From an uncultured cyanobacterium (GTDB lineage: Bacteria; Cyanobacteriota; Cyanobacteriia; Cyanobacteriales; CAWUOF01), in contig CAVUSO010000001.1 of assembly GCA_963744145.1 (NCBI GenBank), positions 7,168,001-7,232,000 of the forward strand: a stretch of 64,000 nt of DNA, written 5' to 3'. Below the pieces are notes generated by a model, which ran no database searches, had not been told where the DNA came from, and saw only the letters and a program-made list of their open reading frames with translations. The position numbers and the translations under genes were made by a program. Shown in pieces: positions 3-8,469 of the stretch (positions within the stretch are counted from its first letter, which is position 1; each line of letters opens with the position of its first letter).

Positions 3-644
3 CAAAAAGACACCCTAGAAGAACCAACCGATCCCTACGCAGTCACCCCAGAAGATGCTCTAGATTCAGCCAGAAGAGAAGTAAAACGTTGGCGAATGGA
101 ACAACTACTGGGAACAAAACGCCAAAATAATCTTGATGCGATCACCGAATGGTTTGTCTTAGCCTGGGATGCTTTCGAGTCACCCCGATTCCCCTACGAT
201 GAAGGTTTACGACTCGCTCGTGTAGTTGGAGTTGATCTCGATCGCGAGATCATCGGTCACATTGCGGAAAAGAAAGCCAGCGACATTCAACTCTGGGATA
301 GTGCCCAACGCGGTGCCAAAGGACAACTCGGTGCAGCTGATGGAAGTAAATCTATGCTAGATGCAATCCATCATGCAGCCAATCGCGCTCGTACTCATGG
401 ACTCGAAACAGCAAAGCAAATGCTCGAACAAAATAAAACAGATATAAATCCAGACTTTCATTCAGCTCTGCTTGCCATGTTAGAAGTATTACCAGTATCA
501 AGTACCTATACCAAATTTGAAGAAGAAGAAGGACCCGTTGCTGAAGCAGCCCAAGACTTTGATGTATTAGAAAACCTACGTCGCTTAATGTTTAGTGAAA
601 AAGTTCCCCAGCCTAAGCAATTAGAAATTTGGTTAGAATTATAA
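3..644 (+). CDS. C-terminal part of a DUF1156-type adenine DNA methyltransferase (starts upstream of the window)
   Basis: The frame is open from base 3 (QKDTLEEPTDPYAVTPEDALDSARREVKRWRMEQL...WFVLAWDAF...YDEGLRLARVVGVDL), resembling DUF1156 methylase C-termini. It is co-oriented with a PLD-SNF2 helicase downstream. The catalytic motifs lie outside the window. Confidence 0.7.
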   Translation, partial: QKDTLEEPTDPYAVTPEDALDSARREVKRWRMEQLLGTKRQNNLDAITEWFVLAWDAFESPRFPYDEGLRLARVVGVDLDREIIGHIAEKKASDIQLWDSAQRGAKGQLGAADGSKSMLDAIHHAANRARTHGLETAKQMLEQNKTDINPDFHSALLAMLEVLPVSSTYTKFEEEEGPVAEAAQDFDVLENLRRLMFSEKVPQPKQLEIWLEL

Positions 645-698
645 TACACCATATTCCATAGACCGCTGACAAAAATAACCAGGTCGATTGAAAATTGA

Positions 699-819
699 TT
701 GAGCGGAGTCGAAATCAAGGGCTGTTTTAATTCCCTTCACATTGCCCCCTTCGGCTACGCTCAGGCTACACTTCGACTACGCCCAGGGCACAGGGCACGC
801 ACAGGGCACGCTCTAGGGT
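699..819. repeat. Degenerate cluster of CTTCGACTACGCTCAGGG-family short repeats
   Basis: gagcggagtcgaa, cccttcggctacgctcagg, cttcgactacgcccaggg and cagggcac units. The same family recurs at ~19830, ~26393, ~37386 and ~52963. Confidence 0.7.
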
Positions 820-969
820 ATTAATTCTGAACCGTGGGTTGTCCACAGAGGGAGGATATTGTTTGAAATATTCGGGTATTTAGACAATATTTTATTTTAC
901 GTAAACCTTTATTGAATAAGGATTTAGAGTGAAAATGTAAAATAAGTAATATTTGGTTATCTTGTGCTA

Positions 970-999
970 TTGACAAATAACGTAAAATAGGTTTAAAGT
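970..999 (+). promoter_or_regulatory. Putative sigma70 promoter of the 1069-2403 gene pair
   Basis: TTGACA (970-975), 18-nt spacer, TAAAGT (994-999), about 70 nt upstream of the GTG start. Confidence 0.5.
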
Positions 1000-1068
1000 A
1001 TGTAACAAGTAATTTTAGTGAAATAGTTGCACAAGATGCTTGGATCACATAGTTAAAAGGAAAGACCC

Positions 1069-1509
1069 GTGAGTTCTTATAAGCAACTCCCACTATCGGA
1101 TCTAAGAGAAAGTTTGCCCAAGTTTAAACGTCAAGTCCAGCTTGGGATGAAAAGAATTGCAGCTACTTACTATGGTCAAGTAGTTGGGTTCTTAGTTCCT
1201 CTCAAGGATCTGGAAGAAGCCGAAAAAGATGGCGCTATTAATAATAGTGAAGAAATGTCTCTATCAGAGTTTCGGTTGCATTTGACAGAATGCTGGGAGC
1301 GACTACAGCTTGATGTTGACTGTATTTATGTCACTTATCACACACGTAGAGCTGTGGCATTTCTTAGTCCTCGTCTTGCTAATTATCTTTTAATACCGAT
1401 TTCCGAAGTTGCTTACAAACTTCTTGCTATTGATAGTGGTCTAATTGAAACATCCAATTTAGTAGTTAAAGATAATAGTTTGATTGAAATAATCAATAAG
1501 GAGACTTGA
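1069..1509 (+). CDS. Protein with two tandem Phd/YefM-like antitoxin domains
   Basis: Two internal segments follow the Phd pattern: LPLSDLRESLPKFKRQVQLGMKRIAATYYGQVVGFLVP and MSLSEFRLHLTECWERLQLDVDCIYVTYHTRRAVAFLSP. GTG start with AAGGA upstream. Confidence 0.6.
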   Translation: MSSYKQLPLSDLRESLPKFKRQVQLGMKRIAATYYGQVVGFLVPLKDLEEAEKDGAINNSEEMSLSEFRLHLTECWERLQLDVDCIYVTYHTRRAVAFLSPRLANYLLIPISEVAYKLLAIDSGLIETSNLVVKDNSLIEIINKET

Positions 1510-1512
1510 TTT

Positions 1513-2403
1513 ATGTCTAAGTTTACAATTTTAGTTGATCAGGAAACTCAAGAAAAAATAAACAATCCTGAGAAATATTTTCCTCCCGAAGCTTGTGCCG
1601 AGATAAAATATTTTATCCAGATACTTGAAAGAGATGGTCAATTAACCAAAACAGATTTTTACGACATTAATACTAATAAAATCAGCGGGGTAGCTGTTAA
1701 CTTATTTTATAGAGTTAATTTTACTAAGAATCAGGTATTGATAATTGATATAAAGGTAAAATCTACTGATATTTTAAAACAAAGATTTCAAATTAATGAT
1801 GATTACAATGATCAAGATGTTTTGGATAAAATTCCGCAATACGATCAACCTAAAAAGATAATTAAAGCTATTATTTTGATAGATAAAGGGGTAAAAGATT
1901 CCTATAACTTAGGTTGTGAGTTAGGTCATAAAGCCAAGAAAGAAAAAGATATTGCACGGCATGGACAGTATGCAATGCAAGCTTTAGAGCAACTTGACTT
2001 AATTACAAGGATAAAAATAGAGAAAGTTCGTAAACTAGAACCTAAGTTGACTGAAAAAGGGAAGTTAATTGTTAATGCACCTAATGAGGATTTAAGATGC
2101 AGGTTGCTTATTGAAGCGATGCTAAAGTATCATCCTGTTTGGAAAATTCTTGTGGCTGTTTCTAAAAATGAAGATCAACCTCACAATAATATGATCCTAA
2201 ATGATGAATTAGTTAAAAATCTTATTTTCCCAAAAGAACTACATGGAGCTGATACGACTAATCGGCGATCGCAGACTTTAAAAAATTGGATTAAGTGGAT
2301 TTGTAAATTTTCTGGAATTCCTATTTATGTTAATGAACATAGTGTCCAACTTCCTATTCCAATGTTATTTGCTGAAAGTACGATAAATGAAGATGAATGT
2401 TAA
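1513..2403 (+). CDS. RelE/ParE-like N-terminal domain fused to a winged-helix-type C-terminal domain
   Basis: The first ~85 aa have a RelE-like layout (FTILVDQETQEKI...LFYRVNFTKNQVLIIDIK). The C-terminal region (IPQYD...RHGQYAMQALEQLDLI...LTEKGK...TTNRRSQTLKNWIKWI) resembles wHTH domains attached to restriction-related proteins. Starts 3 bp after the previous stop. Confidence 0.5.
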   Translation: MSKFTILVDQETQEKINNPEKYFPPEACAEIKYFIQILERDGQLTKTDFYDINTNKISGVAVNLFYRVNFTKNQVLIIDIKVKSTDILKQRFQINDDYNDQDVLDKIPQYDQPKKIIKAIILIDKGVKDSYNLGCELGHKAKKEKDIARHGQYAMQALEQLDLITRIKIEKVRKLEPKLTEKGKLIVNAPNEDLRCRLLIEAMLKYHPVWKILVAVSKNEDQPHNNMILNDELVKNLIFPKELHGADTTNRRSQTLKNWIKWICKFSGIPIYVNEHSVQLPIPMLFAESTINEDEC

Positions 2404-2618
2404 TATAAAAAAAACATATTCTTCTAAATGTGTAAGCACTCTAAAATTATAGCGATCGCGGACATTTTTAATACAAATATCTGTTAGTGATCGCTATTAA
2501 TATTGATGAAAAATACCCTTATTTTATAATTCAAAAAAGAATTCACAAACAGTTTATTAAGTTAGTTTAAAATAAATCTTTTAATCTATAAAAACAATCT
2601 GAACATGGAACTAATATT

Positions 2619-3128
2619 ATGGCATACTTAAAATACAATGGAGTTCAAATAGTGATTAATGATGAGAAAGTTTGCGTTACAGATATTTACAATGCAGCGG
2701 GAAAAATTCCTAATAAAGCACCTACTAATTTTAAAAATTCTAAACAAGGGATAAGCGAAATAAAAAAGTATGAACGTAAATATGGAACAATAGTATGGGT
2801 AAGTAAAACAGGTGTAAATACAATAGCAAGATTTGAAATTGGTGCTGCATATCTAAACTATCTTGGTGATCACATAGCTGCAAAAAAACTATTAGAAGTT
2901 GGTGAAACAGGTAAAAATATTGAATACAATAATCAATCTAATTTCCAATCTTATAATCAATTCACCAAGTCTTCAATTCAATCTTCTTCATCTACTAATA
3001 TATTCAATATTATCTTGGGAATAGTAGGAATATTAGTTATTTTATCATTATTATTTAGTAAAAAAGAAGAAAATCATCAACAACCTTATCAATACAAACA
3101 AGAAAATATCGCGCCAGATACTAATTAG
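2619..3128 (+). CDS. KilA-N/APSES-like DNA-binding protein with a C-terminal transmembrane helix
   Basis: YNGVQI...VCVTDIYNAAG...KAPTNF...EIGAAYLNYL fits the KilA-N pattern. A Ser/Gln/Asn linker is followed by hydrophobic IFNIILGIVGILVILSLLF. Confidence 0.6.
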   Translation: MAYLKYNGVQIVINDEKVCVTDIYNAAGKIPNKAPTNFKNSKQGISEIKKYERKYGTIVWVSKTGVNTIARFEIGAAYLNYLGDHIAAKKLLEVGETGKNIEYNNQSNFQSYNQFTKSSIQSSSSTNIFNIILGIVGILVILSLLFSKKEENHQQPYQYKQENIAPDTN

Positions 3129-3328
3129 TTTTGTTTATCACTATTTCACAAAAGGTTGCCCCCATTTTTCCCACATCTGGCGATTAAAGGGCGATCGCGC
3201 TCCAACTGTCTCAACTATTATCGCATCTTAGAGAATATGGACAACTAGGGAATTTGGGGGGCGATCGCAGTATTCCCAGACAGAAGTAACTAATGGTAGA
3301 TGATCGCATTCTATCTAAATAAATTTTC

Positions 3329-3337
3329 TGCTATAAT
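3329..3337 (+). promoter_or_regulatory. Extended -10 element upstream of dinD
   Basis: TGcTATAAT ~30 nt before a GGAG ribosome-binding site and ATG. Confidence 0.45.
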
Positions 3338-3368
3338 AACTTAATGCAAAATAACCGGAGTAATAGCT

Positions 3369-4211
3369 ATGGAAAAAGATACTATTAACACCTTAACTGA
3401 AAACTTTGAATCTCATGCTCAACAAACTGAAAACGGGATTGAATATTGGCTTGCCCGTGACCTTCAACATCTTTTAGGTTATTCAGAGTGGCGCAATTTT
3501 ACAGGAGTGATAACAAAAGCAAAAACTGCTTGTGAAGTTTCTAATTATGACACCTCAGACCATTTTGTTGACGTTACCAAAATGGTTGATCTTGGTTCAG
3601 GAGGTCAGCGAGAGATAGATGATCTAATGTTAACCCGTTATGCTTGCTATCTCATAGCTCAAAATGGAGATCCTCGTAAACAAGAAATAGCTTTTGCCCA
3701 AACCTATTTTGCTATCCAAACCAGAAAGGCAGAGTTAATCGAGCAAAGATTGTTAGAAGCTGAGAGGGTGTCAGCTAGAAAGAAACTATCAGAGACTGAA
3801 AAAGAGCTTTCTAAAGTGATCTACGAACAAACAGGAAGTGAGCGGGATTTTGCTTCAATCCGTAGTAAGGGAGATTCAGCGTTATTTGGTAAATCCACTA
3901 AAGCAATGAAAGCACAATGGAAAATACCTGATAATCGACCATTGGCAGACTTCGCACCAACCATTATTTTAAAAGCTAAGGATTTTGCAGCTGAGATTAC
4001 TATTTTTAATTCAAGAGAAAATCAATTGAATACAGAGCCAGCTATTTCTAGGGAACATATCACTAATAATCAAGCTGTTCGAGATACATTATTGCAAAGA
4101 GGTATTCGTCCGGAGACTTTACCACCTGCGGAAGATGTGAAGAAAGTTGAACGTCGTCTTGCTTCAGAGGTGAAAAAATCTATGAAAAATCCTGATGCTC
4201 TTGAGTCTTAG
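3369..4211 (+). CDS. dinD: DNA damage-inducible protein D (BRO-N domain)
   Basis: WLARDLQHLLGYSEWRNF, LTRYACYLIAQNGDPRKQEIAFAQTYFAIQTR, RPLADF, PETLPPAEDVKKVERR. Confidence 0.92.
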   Translation: MEKDTINTLTENFESHAQQTENGIEYWLARDLQHLLGYSEWRNFTGVITKAKTACEVSNYDTSDHFVDVTKMVDLGSGGQREIDDLMLTRYACYLIAQNGDPRKQEIAFAQTYFAIQTRKAELIEQRLLEAERVSARKKLSETEKELSKVIYEQTGSERDFASIRSKGDSALFGKSTKAMKAQWKIPDNRPLADFAPTIILKAKDFAAEITIFNSRENQLNTEPAISREHITNNQAVRDTLLQRGIRPETLPPAEDVKKVERRLASEVKKSMKNPDALES

Positions 4212-4294: not shown

Positions 4295-7200
4295 ATGAGT
4301 CTATTATCAGACTACCAATGGCATACTAAATATGACTCTGATAGTGTCAGTCTCATTCAAGAATTCTATGAACCTGCCCTTAGTTGTGCTGTGCGCTACG
4401 ATCGCTCTACAGGTTTTTTCTCAGCTAAACTCCTCACTCTGGCGGCACGAAGTATTGAAAACCTAGTCCACAATAATGGAAAGATGCGGTTGGTAATTGG
4501 CTGCACTATCTCGGAAGCGGAAGTTAATGCGATTGAAAAAGGTGAAAGACTTCGTGATGTAGTTGATCGTCGCATGACCGCATTTCCTCTTGATCCGCGA
4601 TCGCCCTATGAAATCGAAGCTCTAGAGCTATTATCCTGGATGATTGCCCAAGAATATCTAGATATTAAACTTGCATTACCATGTAACTTTCGCGATCGCA
4701 AACCGATTGTCTCATCTGGGATTTTTCATGAGAAAGCTGGCATTATTGAAGACCGTATTGGTAATCGTTTAGCCTTTAATGGTAGCATCAATGAAACAGC
4801 TATGGGTTGGCAGGGGAATTGGGAAAGTTTTCATGTTTTTACTGACTGGACAGGTAGTAAATTCCATGTAGATGATGAAGAAAATAGTTTTGGTAAACTT
4901 TGGAATAATCAAGCAAAACGCTGTCTGGTTATCGATGTTCCTACGGCTATGCGAGAGCAATTATTGAGATTTTTACCGACGGATGATCAACCTCACCGAC
5001 TCAAAGTTAATGATTCTCCCCCAGTTGTTCCACCTCAAATTAACCAAATACCTAAAATCCTCAACCCTGAAATTGATGATATTAGTGAAAAGTTTAAACA
5101 GGTTTGGCAAATTATTCATCATGGAGCATCTTGCAAGGGTAGAGGCGATCGCATTGGTGAAGCTACTGCCAATATTAAGCCATTTCCTCATCAAATTAAA
5201 GCTTTTGGGCGTCTCTACGATCACTATCCACCGAAACTCCTAATTGCTGATGAAGTTGGGCTTGGTAAAACTATTGAAGCTGGATTATTACTTAGACAAG
5301 CATGGCTTTCAGGTAAAGCAAAGCGAATCTTAATCCTAGCACCTAAATCTGTTCTTACCCAATGGCAAATTGAACTTCGCGAAAAATTTAACCTCAATAT
5401 TCCGATCTATGATGGTAAGAATCTTTGCTGGTATGATTGTCCAGCTTTACGGGTTTTCGGTCAAGGGATTGAAAAGTCTGTTAGTCGTCAAGAATGGCAC
5501 AAAGAATCAATCGTAATTGTTTCCAGTCATCTGATGCGAAGAAGCGATCGCGCTAAAGAATTATTAGAAGATGCAGAACCTTACGATTTAGTTTTTCTAG
5601 ATGAAGCACACCATGCACGAAGACAAGGTGATCAAGGTGCAAACCAACTCCTAAAACTCATGCAGCGACTAAAAGATCGAACTCAAGGTTTAGTGCTGCT
5701 GACTGCAACACCAATGCAAGTTGATCCAATCGAAGTTTGGGACTTATTAAACTTACTCGGATTACCAAATCTATGGAATAGTGATTACTTTCAGAAATTT
5801 TTTGAATATGCTAGTGCAAGTAATCCTAGTCATGAACAATTTGAGTTTATGGCACAATTGTTTCGAGCTGTCGAATCTTATTTTGGGGAAACAAGCATTG
5901 CATCAGTAATGCGTTATGTCAAAGATAGTAAACTTGCTGCCAAAACTATTTTAAAAGCACTCCGAGATGAAGCACAACTACCCAGAAGACAACTAAATAG
6001 TGAGCGTCGTCGGGCTGCGATCGCGATAATGAAAGCTAATACACCAGTCACAAAACTAATTTCTCGTCATACCCGTGAACTCCTCCGTCGCTACTACGAA
6101 GCAGGCAAAATTAGTAGTCGAATTGCTACCCGGATTGTTGAAGATGAATTTGTCAATCTTACTGCTAGTGAACGCACTCTTTACGAAGCAGTAGAAGATT
6201 ACATTTCAACTACTTACAACAACGCATCAACAGCAGAACGCAACGCTGTTGGTTTTGTGATGACTATTTATCGTCGTCGTCTTGCTAGTAGCTTTGCTGC
6301 TCTTACCCATACCCTCAGTATGAGGATTGAGAAAATTAACAACTCAAAGCAGATCAAAAATAATTTAAACCAGTTTGTCTTAATTGAAGATATCTCAGAC
6401 GATGAAACTGACGATGAAGTTATGGATACGGATACTGCAAACAAACTTGAGCAGGAAGCACTCAAACGCGAAGAAGTTTTGGAACTAGAATATCTGCGCG
6501 ATCGCATTCGTCAACTACCTACAGACACAAAAGCTAAAATACTCCTCAACAAGATTCAACAATTGCAAACCGAAGGTTACCAACAAGTCATCATCTTTAC
6601 CCAATACACCGACACCATGGACTTTTTGCGTAAATTTCTATTGAAATCAGATCAACAAAGCTTAATTTGTTTTTCAGGTAGAGGTGGTGAAATAGCTAAC
6701 AGCGATCGCAGTTGGCGAAATATTTCACGGGATGAAACCAAACGGATATTTCGGGAAGGTAAAGCCGATATCTTACTTTGTACAGATGCGGCTGCTGAAG
6801 GTCTAAACTTTCAGTTTTGTGGCGCACTTATTAACTATGATATGCCTTGGAATCCCATGCGAGTGGAACAACGGATCGGTCGGATTGATCGATTAGGACA
6901 AACTTTTGCATCGATTAAAATTATTAACTTGCATTATCGCAATACGATCGAGACAGATGTTTAATTGCAAAATTCTTTTAATTGTTTTTGTACTGGCCTC
7001 AATTCCCCATTTTTCTTTGGCTTTTTCTACCACTTGTTTTAATTGTCTTGGTTCGGATTTTGTCCACTCTTTAATTTGGTTTTCTTGTTCAGAATTAAAT
7101 TTTGGTTTAGAGCCTCTACCTGATTGATTATATAATCCAACCATACTAGATGATTCCCATCGCCCAAACCAATTATAAATTGTTTTAGAGCTGACGTTGA

Positions 7201-7963
7201 AAATTTTCATCAACTCTGGGACTTTTACACCGTCGTTTGCTAAGATTAGGCAATGAGCTCTTTCGACGCACCTGGTGATGTCGGCTTTGATGATAAATTC
7301 GCTTTAGTAATTTAACGGAAAGGGGATTAATTTCTCGTAGAAATATCATTTTTTTAGTTAAATTTAAATTTCAACTCTTCAACCTTAACACATTATGTTA
7401 TTATTGTAAATAATTCTGTACAATTACTTATTGCTCTACGTGAGCGAATTGGATTGTTCTCAAAATATGTCGGTAAACTGCAACCAATCTTAGCAAATCT
7501 ACCTAAAAATATTGCCAGTATTGCCCTGAGCAGTCGCGAAGAGCGAGATCAACAACGCGATGAACTACTGAGTAATATTGATAAAAATCGTCGTCAAGCT
7601 GAAACTGATAGTTTCGATCTTGATGCTATTACCGAAGACGATCTCGAAGAACCAGTTAGAGCTGAGGCTTTTTACGACTTGGAAACCTTGGATTTACTCT
7701 TGCATTGTCCAAAATTTTTACCACCTGGTATCGAAGTAGAGCCGATGCAACCAGGCGAATATAAGTTCTCTATGCCAGGAATGAGGGAAACTATTCGCAT
7801 CACAACTAGAGCAGATTATTTTGACCAACATCCTGAAAGTGTTGAACTATGGTCATCTGGTAGCCCCTTGTTTCCTTTATTTGACCATGAAAATAAAATA
7901 GATGAGTTGCCTTTAATTGAACTAAATGAATTTTTCCAAAATTATATTTCACAATACTCCTGA
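4295..7963 (+). pseudogene. PLD-nuclease/SNF2 helicase fusion interrupted by an IS630 fragment
   Basis: PLD-like FHEKAG...GSINET. SNF2 motifs ADEVGLGKT, DEAHH, LTATP, EGLNFQ, QRIGRIDR. Removing 6964-7428 (465 bp) joins ETDV to YIALRERIGLF in frame, giving 1067 aa. Confidence 0.9.
6964..7428 (-). mobile_element. Truncated, frameshifted IS630-family element
   Basis: The minus strand from ATG 7349 reads MIFLREINPLSVKLLKRIYHQSRHHQVRR, then a +1 frameshift, then RAHCLILAND...TIYNWFGRWE...GRGSKPK (IS630 HTH region). There is no DDE domain. TA lies on both sides. Confidence 0.8.
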
Positions 7964-8022: not shown

Positions 8023-8469
8023 TCAACTTTTTCCTATCGATAAGTGAACTTTTTTTTGCTTTAAAATTCGTCTGACTTGAGTCCCGCTCAGGTGAATCCC
8101 TGTTGCTTGATTCAAATGGAGTGCTAAACGTTCTCCTGTCCAACGGTCAAACTCATAGCCCAGAGATTTAGGTGCTGTATTGATCAGATTGATTAACAAT
8201 TGGATGTAATCTTCAGTAACTTTACGGTAGTTACCCTGTTCGCGCTTATCTCTCAGACTATCTAGGTCATCAGGATTACCATGTACACACCAATAGGCAA
8301 CTGTCCTGTATGAACAACCAATGAAATCAGCTATTTGTTCATAAGTTTTACCATCATTTTGCAATAACAACATCAAAACATGCTCTCGAAAATGAGGACA
8401 ATCACTATCCCGTAATGCTTGTTGGAGCAGTTTTTTTTGGACTAAAGTCAGAAAACCTTTGGCAGGCAT
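8023..8469 (-). mobile_element. IS630-family N-terminal helix-turn-helix ORF with no DDE domain
   Basis: LMLLLQNDGKTYEQIADFIGCSYRTVAYW...GYEFDRWTGERLALHL...GIHLSGTQVRRILKQKK. Confidence 0.65.

Follow-up and report, generated by a model that had tools for sequence, protein, structure and literature searches.

The window analyzed here is a stretch of 64,000 nucleotides (nt) from an uncultured cyanobacterium (GenBank assembly GCA_963744145.1, contig CAVUSO010000001.1, positions 7,168,001 to 7,232,000). Near its start, two co-oriented open reading frames (ORFs), gene 1 (1069-1509; GTG start, 146 amino acids, aa) and gene 2 (1513-2403; ATG start, 296 aa), appear to form an autonomous, horizontally mobile, antidote-gated and DNA-directed toxin-antitoxin (TA)-like cassette, lodged here as cargo in an Hma defense locus. 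We put the probability of this reading at about one half. Gene 1 would be the antidote, in effect the familiar antitoxin dimer fused covalently into one chain with one flexible tail, and gene 2 would be the effector, joining a RelE/ParE fold to DUF7226, a predicted double winged-helix DNA-recognition domain. The folds of both proteins are predicted from structural models; binding, toxicity, DNA target and trigger of the cassette are as we infer them.

The features of the pair are as follows.
1069-1509, plus strand: gene 1, predicted single-chain tandem Phd/YefM-fold antitoxin-like protein, 146 aa (profile, AlphaFold2 model, structure superposition, hhalign of the halves)
1078-1230, plus strand: predicted unit 1 of gene 1, approximately aa 4-54
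1246-1386, plus strand: predicted unit 2 of gene 1, approximately aa 60-106
1387-1506, plus strand: tail of gene 1, aa 107-146, conserved, low model confidence
1498-1503, plus strand: AAGGAG, ribosome-binding site (RBS) of gene 2, within the 3' end of gene 1 (direct sequence reading)
1513-1788, plus strand: N-terminal domain of gene 2, aa 1-92, predicted RelE/ParE fold (AlphaFold2 model, VIA-align, Foldseek)
1825-2403, plus strand: gene 2 linker (invariant IPQxDxP), predicted DUF7226 winged-helix domain (approximately aa 105-285) and disordered end

Gene 1 encodes a predicted tandem of Phd/YefM units

The sequence-only reading of this DNA had proposed two Phd/YefM segments in gene 1, and several lines of evidence, each weak singly, agree on such a fold. 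Residues 6-54 match the Pfam family PhdYeFM_antitox weakly (E = 5.4e-4, 20.1 bits, under the 29.8-bit gathering score), and a profile of 33 gene 1 homologues matches the YefM-type RelB chain 9g12_C over aa 7-59 (E = 0.0024). The AlphaFold2 model (predicted local distance difference test, pLDDT, 77.2; predicted template-modeling score 0.70) contains two strand-helix-strand-strand-helix units, at residues 5-53 and 60-106. A structure search independent of Foldseek placed aa 60-116 best on 9g12_D (Z 4.2), 2odk (Z 4.0) and Phd 3hs2 (Z 3.7), with YefM 2a6q at Z 2.9; taken by themselves these scores are low, as expected for a domain of ~50 residues, yet they stand at the top of the list. When the two halves were aligned with each other by hhalign, they matched with 31% identity over 42 columns (E = 4.6e-5, probability 68%). 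Models and alignments together support a predicted internal duplication of a Phd/YefM unit, giving a covalent tandem with one C-terminal tail.

Foldseek comparison of the gene 1 model with the Protein Data Bank returned nothing significant. It gave weak matches to CBS pairs (E ≥ 0.015), and we rejected kinship with these, reading the resemblance as a common beta-alpha-beta-beta tandem arrangement.

The two units lie in one 146-aa chain with one tail, both in the window and in all 33 aligned homologues, unlike the antitoxins of YefM-YoeB-type systems, which are homodimers of ~90-aa chains. The tail carries a conserved motif (SPRL..YL.IP.SEVA.KLLA.DSGLIE) and is modeled at pLDDT 41-55. Conservation together with low predicted confidence is typical of a segment that folds upon binding, and in this the predicted tail resembles the flexible antidote tail of YefM-YoeB-type TA pairs. 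Our literature search returned nothing relevant on tandem or pseudo-dimeric Phd/YefM antitoxins or on RelE-winged-helix fusions.

Gene 2 begins with a predicted RelE/ParE fold

Gene 2 had been described as having a RelE/ParE-shaped N-terminus and a winged-helix C-terminus, and structure comparison recovered both. In the AlphaFold2 model (pLDDT 85.2), aa 2-86 superpose on RelE 1wmi_C with Z 10.5 and a root-mean-square deviation of 2.9 over 81 of 88 residues (VIA-align), followed by RelE1 9g12_B (Z 9.7) and the YoeB chains 7v6w_F (Z 9.7) and 2a6q_E (Z 9.4). The top of the Foldseek list consists of RelE, YoeB, YafQ, HigB and ParE structures (probability 1.00, E ~0.01-0.1, TM score 0.5-0.73 on the target). 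Both predicted folds, Phd/YefM in gene 1 and RelE/YoeB (Z 9.4-10.5) in gene 2, are thus those of YefM-YoeB-type pairs.

The kinship is not visible by sequence: the N-terminal domain matched no Pfam RelE/ParE family (E ≤ 1) and, profiles included, none of the solved chains (E ≤ 10), and sequence and profile searches of solved structures with gene 2 found no RelE and no other relative. One distant relative (P0226) is automatically annotated in one source as "mRNA-degrading endonuclease RelE."

RelE-superfamily active sites vary, and their basic residues and tyrosine sit on the strands and helix where N53, Y66, R67, K81, K83 and R91 of gene 2 fall. Within the close gene 2 family (27 sequences), R91 is invariant, N53, Y66 and K83 are each conserved in at least 90%, position 67 is mostly R, and visual inspection of the alignment shows K81 frequently. 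The fold is not that of a stand-alone toxin of 85-100 aa; it forms the N-terminal domain of a 296-aa protein that also holds a 190-aa domain of the DNA-recognition type, a clear difference from YoeB and its kin. A profile search of 1.84 billion proteins also yielded short matches to the N-terminal domain (e.g., 117, 146, 150 and 163 aa), which may be fragments or stand-alone forms.

The C-terminal domain of gene 2 is shared with restriction-type proteins

Residues 148-265 of gene 2 match Pfam DUF7226 (PF23871) with E = 2.4e-13 and 50.6 bits (cut-off 27), and all 39 gene 2 homologues carry the precomputed PF23871 label. By model superposition, aa 111-197 form a MarR-like winged helix (Z 8-9.4), and aa 104-289 align with the recognition domain of FokI (2fok_A) with Z 8.9 over 166 residues, a likeness to enzymes of the FokI type, in which the winged-helix recognition domain is separate. 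The most conserved parts of gene 2 are the DUF7226 motifs RHGxY and TxxRR, which are invariant or nearly so even when the wide family is included.

The profile search gave 82 matches at E ≤ 0.001 among 1.84 billion representative proteins, including the gene 2 family and proteins of ~430 aa. A Pfam scan of 13 DUF7226-only matches found the order DUF6996-DUF6997-DUF7226 in seven of the eight proteins of ~430 aa, and one protein of 602 aa has a partial D12 methylase followed by the same three domains. In 13 aligned proteins of ~430 aa, the pattern D...EAK is invariant, and by reading it would correspond to the PD-(D/E)xK signature. Alignment of gene 2 aa 105-281 with the C-terminus of this family by hhalign gave a probability of 99.5% (E = 2.6e-23); shared features are the PQxD linker and the motifs R(H/Q)xxY and TxxRR...W. 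The ~430-aa family occurs in 17 of 401 sampled cyanobacterial genomes. We examined 12 of the 18 genomic loci with a ~430-aa family gene (L025-L042, e.g., L027 21-2091), and in all 12 a gene for a D12-class N6-adenine methylase adjoins it, mostly overlapping its start.

We infer from these findings that a type II restriction-modification family not described so far uses DUF7226 to recognize DNA; a literature search on DUF7226 and on DUF6997 found no papers. Gene 2 itself has no match to DUF6996 or DUF6997, has the predicted RelE fold in that place, and belongs to a cassette without a D12 methylase. It therefore differs from these enzymes in that a RelE fold replaces the PD-(D/E)xK domain and in that self-protection would be provided by a protein antidote. 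Judged by profile and motif, its C-terminal domain is a DNA-recognition-like domain shared with restriction-modification-linked, putative PD-(D/E)xK enzymes. The proposal that this module is a winged helix therefore stands, and its description as a generic DNA sensor does not.

Gene 1 and gene 2 occur as a strict pair

Searches at E ≤ 0.001 yielded 39 cluster representatives for gene 2 (window protein included), of which all organism-named ones are cyanobacterial, and 100 for gene 1. The sequence-only reading had asked for a survey of co-occurrence, and the pairing turned out to be strict: gene 1 lies directly upstream of the gene 2 relative in 16 of 18 genome loci (L001-L018). Gene 2 is unbroken in 14 of these 16 pairs, 13 as an ORF and one (L012) by a tblastn match alone. 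In the other two pairs gene 1 is intact, but one in-frame stop codon interrupts gene 2; it falls on the invariant Y of IPQYD in L002 and after PPIW in L013. At the two loci without gene 1 (L017 and L018), gene 2 is truncated at its 5' end and the RelE-like part is gone.

The 401 cyanobacterial genomes, a sample that may overlap the 18 loci, contain a full-length gene 2 in four cases (the window genome included), and gene 1 is adjacent in the same four; beyond these, the sample yielded a single truncated gene 2 and a lone, distant ORF of the tandem-Phd-like type. This solitary ORF (L047 1453-1839) encodes 128 aa, matches the gene 1 profile with E = 2.6e-8 and is not followed by a partner in the same orientation. 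Neither the 18 loci nor the 401 genomes hold an intact gene 2 without gene 1, a distant relative in Crinalium aside. Gene 1 is thus kept beside a broken gene 2, and the reverse was not seen, which is the asymmetry expected of a TA pair; YefM-YoeB-type systems likewise do not keep an intact toxin gene where the antidote gene is missing. Rough dN/dS values, with dS saturated, of ~0.06-0.09 for gene 1 and 0.13-0.33 for gene 2 indicate that both genes are under purifying selection.

The pair has a putative promoter and operator of its own

The stop codon of gene 1 and the start codon of gene 2 are 3 nt apart (TGA-ttt-ATG), and an AT-rich spacer of 424 nt precedes gene 1. Two predicted elements lie in this spacer.
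970-999, plus strand: putative sigma-70-type promoter, TTGACA-18-TAAAGT (10 of 12 matches), aligning with TTG(A/C)CA and TAnnTT at other loci
934-992, plus strand: upstream control region, candidate operator, with two direct copies of an A(A/C)GTAAAATA(A/G)GT box

The description of two co-oriented genes 3 bp apart behind their own promoter holds for the ORFs and is consistent with the alignment of upstream regions. Promoter-like sites in a scan were not more numerous than in shuffled sequences (10 found vs 13.9 expected); in the alignment, the -35 and -10 positions of the 970-999 site line up in all 11 upstream regions (the window and 10 other loci). The RBS is also kept across these 11 regions, where mean identity is 49%. 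With its 3-nt gap, internal RBS and putative promoter at a conserved position, the pair has, as far as sequence can tell, the layout of a type II TA system, with adjacent small genes and the antidote first. YefM-YoeB, Phd-Doc and mycobacterial RelBE share this order, the near-abutting genes and the promoter of their own.

The two box copies in the window, at 934-947 and 979-992, are TGTAAAAT-type boxes in direct orientation (repeat D2). Their GTAAAA core is invariant in the 11 aligned regions, ~130 nt before the start, and is preceded by T in at least 90% of them; the TGTAAAA core of the first window box is at 936-942. Relatives additionally have a palindrome, AGTAT-N4-GTACT, immediately before the RBS.

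Elsewhere the cassette stands in varied neighborhoods, usually with a third gene

To describe the surroundings of the pair elsewhere, we considered 15 loci, at which 165 ORFs are listed within 5 kb. The scan covered 112 of these ORFs and excluded gene 1 and gene 2 themselves, genes recurring in near-duplicate loci and some of the outermost ORFs. The neighbors include housekeeping genes (isoleucyl-tRNA synthetase, transketolase and porphobilinogen deaminase), TA genes (BrnT, MNT/HepT, PIN and ParE), transposases and STAND NTPases, and one pair is on a Nostoc plasmid. These varied neighborhoods and the plasmid location indicate that the cassette moves on its own. None of the 112 neighboring ORFs encodes DUF499, DUF1156 or SNF2, so the pair is not a core component of Hma, and the suggestion that it guards the surrounding methylase/helicase system falls.

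A third gene of 170-190 aa, which the sequence-only reading had not foreseen, follows gene 2 in 10 of the 16 pairs (L001, L002, L003, L009-L012 and L014-L016) and in two sampled genomes, and it usually overlaps the end of gene 2. Most relatives of the window pair would thus be three-gene operons with a PD-(D/E)xK-like protein.
Third gene, examples: L010 10809-11351; L014 10857-11375; L016 10857-11390; L003 8805-9374; L015 10972-11553
Its product has an invariant D60...E74-x-K76, which reads as PD-(D/E)xK-like, and it matches no Pfam, PADLOC, NCBIfam or PHROGs model and no solved relative. Protein-atlas leads alone point to phage hypothetical proteins and to NOV_C or PDDEXK_14, annotated on 13-18% of the members of nearby clusters. 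Descent of the third gene from the nuclease part of the ~430-aa family, as a detached domain, was rejected (hhalign probability 0.6%); the candidate nuclease of the relatives is a separate small gene, which sets the cassette apart from the DUF6996-DUF6997-DUF7226 enzymes. A third, nuclease-like gene also distinguishes most cassette relatives from YefM-YoeB-type TA pairs.

Five Nostoc-type pairs and both truncated loci have instead a pair of genes for proteins of 297 and 143 aa after gene 2 (L005-L008, L013, L017 and L018, Nostoc- or Scytonema-type; e.g., L006 11068-11961 and 11971-12402). The 297-aa protein has only atlas leads below 0.9 (Bro-N, P22_AR_N and KilA-N), no solved relative and no NCBIfam model. 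The window carries a KilA-N-like gene and a Bro-N (DinD) gene at the position matching this pair of genes. In the window and in L004, the cassette has neither the third gene nor the 297-aa/143-aa pair.

One phage contig carries gene 1 by itself

On one phage contig from IMG/VR (IMGVR_UViG_3300035126_001304; L052), genes for portal, scaffold, small terminase, a major head protein and a virion structural protein surround an intact gene 1 (4846-5450; 80% aa identity), complete with the TGTAAAAC box, promoter and palindrome. Positions 4846-5405 have 88% nucleotide identity to Nostocales loci of the Dolichospermum/Anabaena type. Of gene 2, only a vestige of 14 codons, resembling residues ~31-44, is left right after the gene 1 stop, and a search of IMG/VR viral contigs recovered no gene 2. 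This solitary phage-borne gene 1, another finding beyond the earlier reading, may be an antidote captured for counter-defense, as one contig with thin evidence hints.

T4 Dmd is a phage antidote against the RnlA/LsoA host TA defense. The phage contig resembles that case in carrying gene 1 alone, under a host-type promoter and with gene 2 lost. It differs in that its gene 1, known from one metagenomic contig, is almost the host antidote itself (80% aa identity) and no unrelated mimic.

A proposed mechanism and the evidence against it

As we picture the cassette, the pseudo-dimeric core of gene 1 would occupy the upstream operator and repress the promoter, and the single gene 1 tail would wrap the RelE-fold domain of one gene 2 molecule, leaving gene 2 inert. 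In the two-to-one YefM-YoeB complex, one tail of the YefM dimer holds one YoeB. Loss of gene 1, for example through phage shut-off of host expression, would release gene 2 to work on the DNA sites that DUF7226 recognizes. Its partner in most relatives would probably be the translationally coupled small PD-(D/E)xK-like protein; the window lacks the third gene, so its gene 2 would have to act alone or be weakened.

Several observations weigh against an antidote-gated, DNA-directed cassette. Gene 1 is the slower-evolving partner, with 72-89% identity vs 51-59% for gene 2 across the same loci (dN 0.08-0.23 and 0.27-0.41, respectively); this is the opposite of the usual evolutionary pattern in TA pairs, and it separates the cassette from YefM-YoeB-type systems. 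The distant relative of gene 2 on plasmid pCRI9333.02 of Crinalium epipsammum PCC 9333 (L053 2744-5367; 313 aa, 35% identity), the one locus at which the neighborhood of a distant gene 2 relative was read, has no Phd-like neighbor (hhalign probability 0.6%) and has a D12 methylase just downstream. This single locus hints that gene 2-family proteins act on DNA in a methylation-guardable way. Searches of metagenome contigs for further distant loci, with a narrower alignment and with a single protein, returned none. The third gene is missing from the window and, by tblastn, from the whole genome to which the window belongs, and the window reads AAGATGCTTGGATCA at the position of the palindrome before the RBS, so this element of the relatives has diverged here.

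Database and neighborhood scans add further points against it. No PADLOC, NCBIfam or PHROGs model matches gene 1 or gene 2, and neither gene is found in 50,697 GenBank phage records, which leaves one contig as the phage evidence. The defense-island enrichment that the sequence-only reading had wanted checked is absent, as only 7 of the 112 scanned neighbors hit PADLOC at E ≤ 1e-10 and most of these hits are spurious (a TnpB, an intein and a spermidine synthase among them).

The last point against concerns the RelE-like domain. Across the wider family (29 sequences, 19-34% identity), just L38, G42 and Y66 of this domain are conserved in at least 90%, so an enzymatic role has no conserved active site to cite. 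The earlier remark that the usual RelE catalytic residues are not obvious was borne out: the wider alignment makes no conserved catalytic set evident, which would be a further difference from YefM-YoeB-type toxins. Given the few residues kept in the N-terminal domain and the near-invariant DUF7226 motifs, we think that the RelE-fold domain more probably serves for docking, or in a ParE-like way, than as a conserved mRNase.

Alternative explanations

An unlikely alternative is a canonical RelE/YoeB-type TA pair, in which the N-terminal domain of gene 2 would be a ribosome-dependent mRNA endonuclease, DUF7226 would contribute no more than DNA binding, giving the toxin a direct part in the repression of its operon, and DNA would not be the target. 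The match to the RelE/YoeB fold is strong and covers the whole domain; the close family keeps R91, N53, Y66 and K83, mostly R67 and commonly K81; and there is the automatic label of P0226. Against these stand the lack of conservation of the basic residues in the wider family, where L38, G42 and Y66 alone reach 90%, and the lack of any sequence or profile link to Pfam RelE/ParE or solved RelE chains at the thresholds given above. Conservation moreover peaks in RHGxY and TxxRR of DUF7226, a domain that derives from restriction-type enzymes and not from repressors, and most relatives have a third, nuclease-like gene coupled with gene 2.

It is improbable, in our view, that the pair is instead a two-protein transcriptional controller of downstream effectors, which would be the PD-(D/E)xK-like gene in relatives and the embedded genes or the helicase in the window. 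Controller proteins of restriction-modification systems and BrxR-type regulators of defense islands provide an analogy. The pair always comes first with variable genes after it, the winged helix is MarR-like (Z 8-9.4), one homologue is named "putative transcriptional regulator" by NCBI and UniRef, conserved DNA boxes lie upstream, and gene 1 is conserved very strongly, as a DNA binder with a fixed site would be. Selective decay of one partner beside an intact other is, however, unexpected for a regulator, a phage would have little reason to retain gene 1 alone, and the pairs in the window and L004 have no conserved downstream gene to control. DUF7226 is homologous to the DNA-recognition domain of an enzyme, and we know of no role for a RelE fold in regulators.

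The least probable explanation, that the window cassette is a decaying, inactive remnant, stripped of its nuclease gene and of some of its operator and carried passively in the Hma locus, draws on the absence of the third gene from the genome, the diverged palindrome, gene 2 pseudogenes in other genomes, and a helicase gene whose 3' end abuts an IS630-like fragment (IS630 match 6893-7213, minus strand), so that the whole island is possibly degenerating; yet both frames are intact and full length, all residues invariant in the close family are present in the window copy, the promoter and TGTAAAA box are kept with the box even duplicated, L004 likewise has the pair alone, and dN/dS relative to relatives is well below 1, a value that covers the whole lineage and not recent time.

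Wider implications of an antidote-gated cassette

If the cassette is an antidote-gated, DNA-directed system, gene 1 would be an antitoxin dimer made into a single chain with one toxin-binding tail, which would fix a 1:1 stoichiometry and allow a non-palindromic operator to be read. Gene 2 would join a RelE/ParE fold to the DNA-reading domain of a restriction enzyme and so link the TA and restriction-modification worlds. The phage contig would then be a natural instance of a cyanophage retaining the antidote alone. Filamentous cyanobacteria, whose phage defenses are little studied, would gain a new defense candidate, and Pfam DUF7226 would gain a role. Were the pair merely a regulator or a remnant, the result would be a modest improvement in annotation.

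We also entertain, tentatively and with the odds clearly against it, a bolder reading of the whole family as a methylase-free, antitoxin-gated restriction-like system. In it, a type II restriction-enzyme lineage would have lent its DNA-recognition domain to a RelE fold. The RelE fold would serve as an on/off handle or as a DNA-directed effector held by the covalent Phd dimer, a small PD-(D/E)xK subunit would do the cutting in most members, and cyanophages would escape by taking just the antitoxin gene. The D12-linked relative in Crinalium would then be an evolutionary bridge from methylation protection to protein-antidote protection. As a side observation, this relative is preceded by a gene for a helicase with a DnaJ domain.

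The pair lies between hmaB-like and hmaA-like genes

The window pair had been placed inside a defense locus, and the surrounding genes agree. Their order is DUF499 ATPase, DUF7680, DUF1156 methylase, gene 1, gene 2, a KilA-N-like gene, the DinD-like PDC-S13 and the PLD/SNF2 helicase. The DUF499 ATPase upstream matches PADLOC HmaC (6e-94), and HmaB-like and HmaA-like genes lie upstream and downstream of the pair, respectively.
3-644, plus strand: 3' end of an hmaB-like gene for a DUF1156 N6-adenine DNA methylase, context (full ORF L019 12699-15644; DUF1156 and N6_N4_Mtase; HmaB 1.5e-67)
2619-3128, plus strand: gene for a 169-aa protein whose N-terminus weakly resembles KilA-N and whose C-terminal part has a hydrophobic segment (Pfam KilA-N E = 9.4e-4, under the cut-off)
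3369-4211, plus strand: gene for a DinD-like Bro-N protein, PADLOC candidate PDC-S13 (NCBIfam DinD 6.1e-115; PDC-S13 1.2e-118; Pfam Bro-N)
4295-6964, plus strand: hmaA-like PLD/SNF2 helicase gene, context (SNF2-rel_dom, Helicase_C and PLDc_2; PLD_Helicase 4.3e-71; HmaA 1.9e-55)

Payne et al. (2024, bioRxiv 10.1101/2024.01.29.577857) reported that, among 1,485 Hma systems, 62.7% contain embedded genes, nearly always co-oriented, and that seven of the nine such candidates put to the test gave phage protection. Given these figures, the position of the pair between hmaB and hmaA makes it embedded cargo and a defense candidate. The pair is thus cargo of the Hma locus and not an Hma component. It shares with the candidates of Payne et al. 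the co-oriented position between the two genes, here beside PDC-S13, and so the setting that their paper calls "guilt by embedding." It differs from them in that neither gene matches a model of PADLOC-DB 2.0.0, which contains those candidates, in that four genes are embedded here vs a maximum of three in their search, and in that the other examined loci of the pair are not in Hma systems.

The gene at 2619-3128 was rejected as a counterpart of the third gene, as identity is 16-22% with poor alignment and as the three other genomes of the 401 that have a homologue (40-51% identity) contain neither gene 1 nor gene 2.

Minor features of the island

Guanine-plus-cytosine content is 25-35% in the cassette region (800-3200) vs 38-50% in the flanks, and a search of 600-3500 found no hairpin resembling a terminator. 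Downstream of gene 2, the spacer at 2404-2618 contains two GCGATCGC palindromes (2453-2460 and near 2490) and a promoter-like site at 2503-2530. Just upstream of the window (L019 11353-12699), the DUF7680 gene overlaps the end of the DUF499 ATPase gene, and a stretch of 837 nt without an ORF of at least 100 aa lies between the DUF7680 and methylase genes. Downstream, fragments of an IS630-family transposase occupy 6893-7349 and 8023-8469 on the minus strand, the first starting in the last helicase codons. The end of the helicase may have been displaced to a 169-aa ORF at 7454-7963, in which case the Hma helicase may be disrupted.

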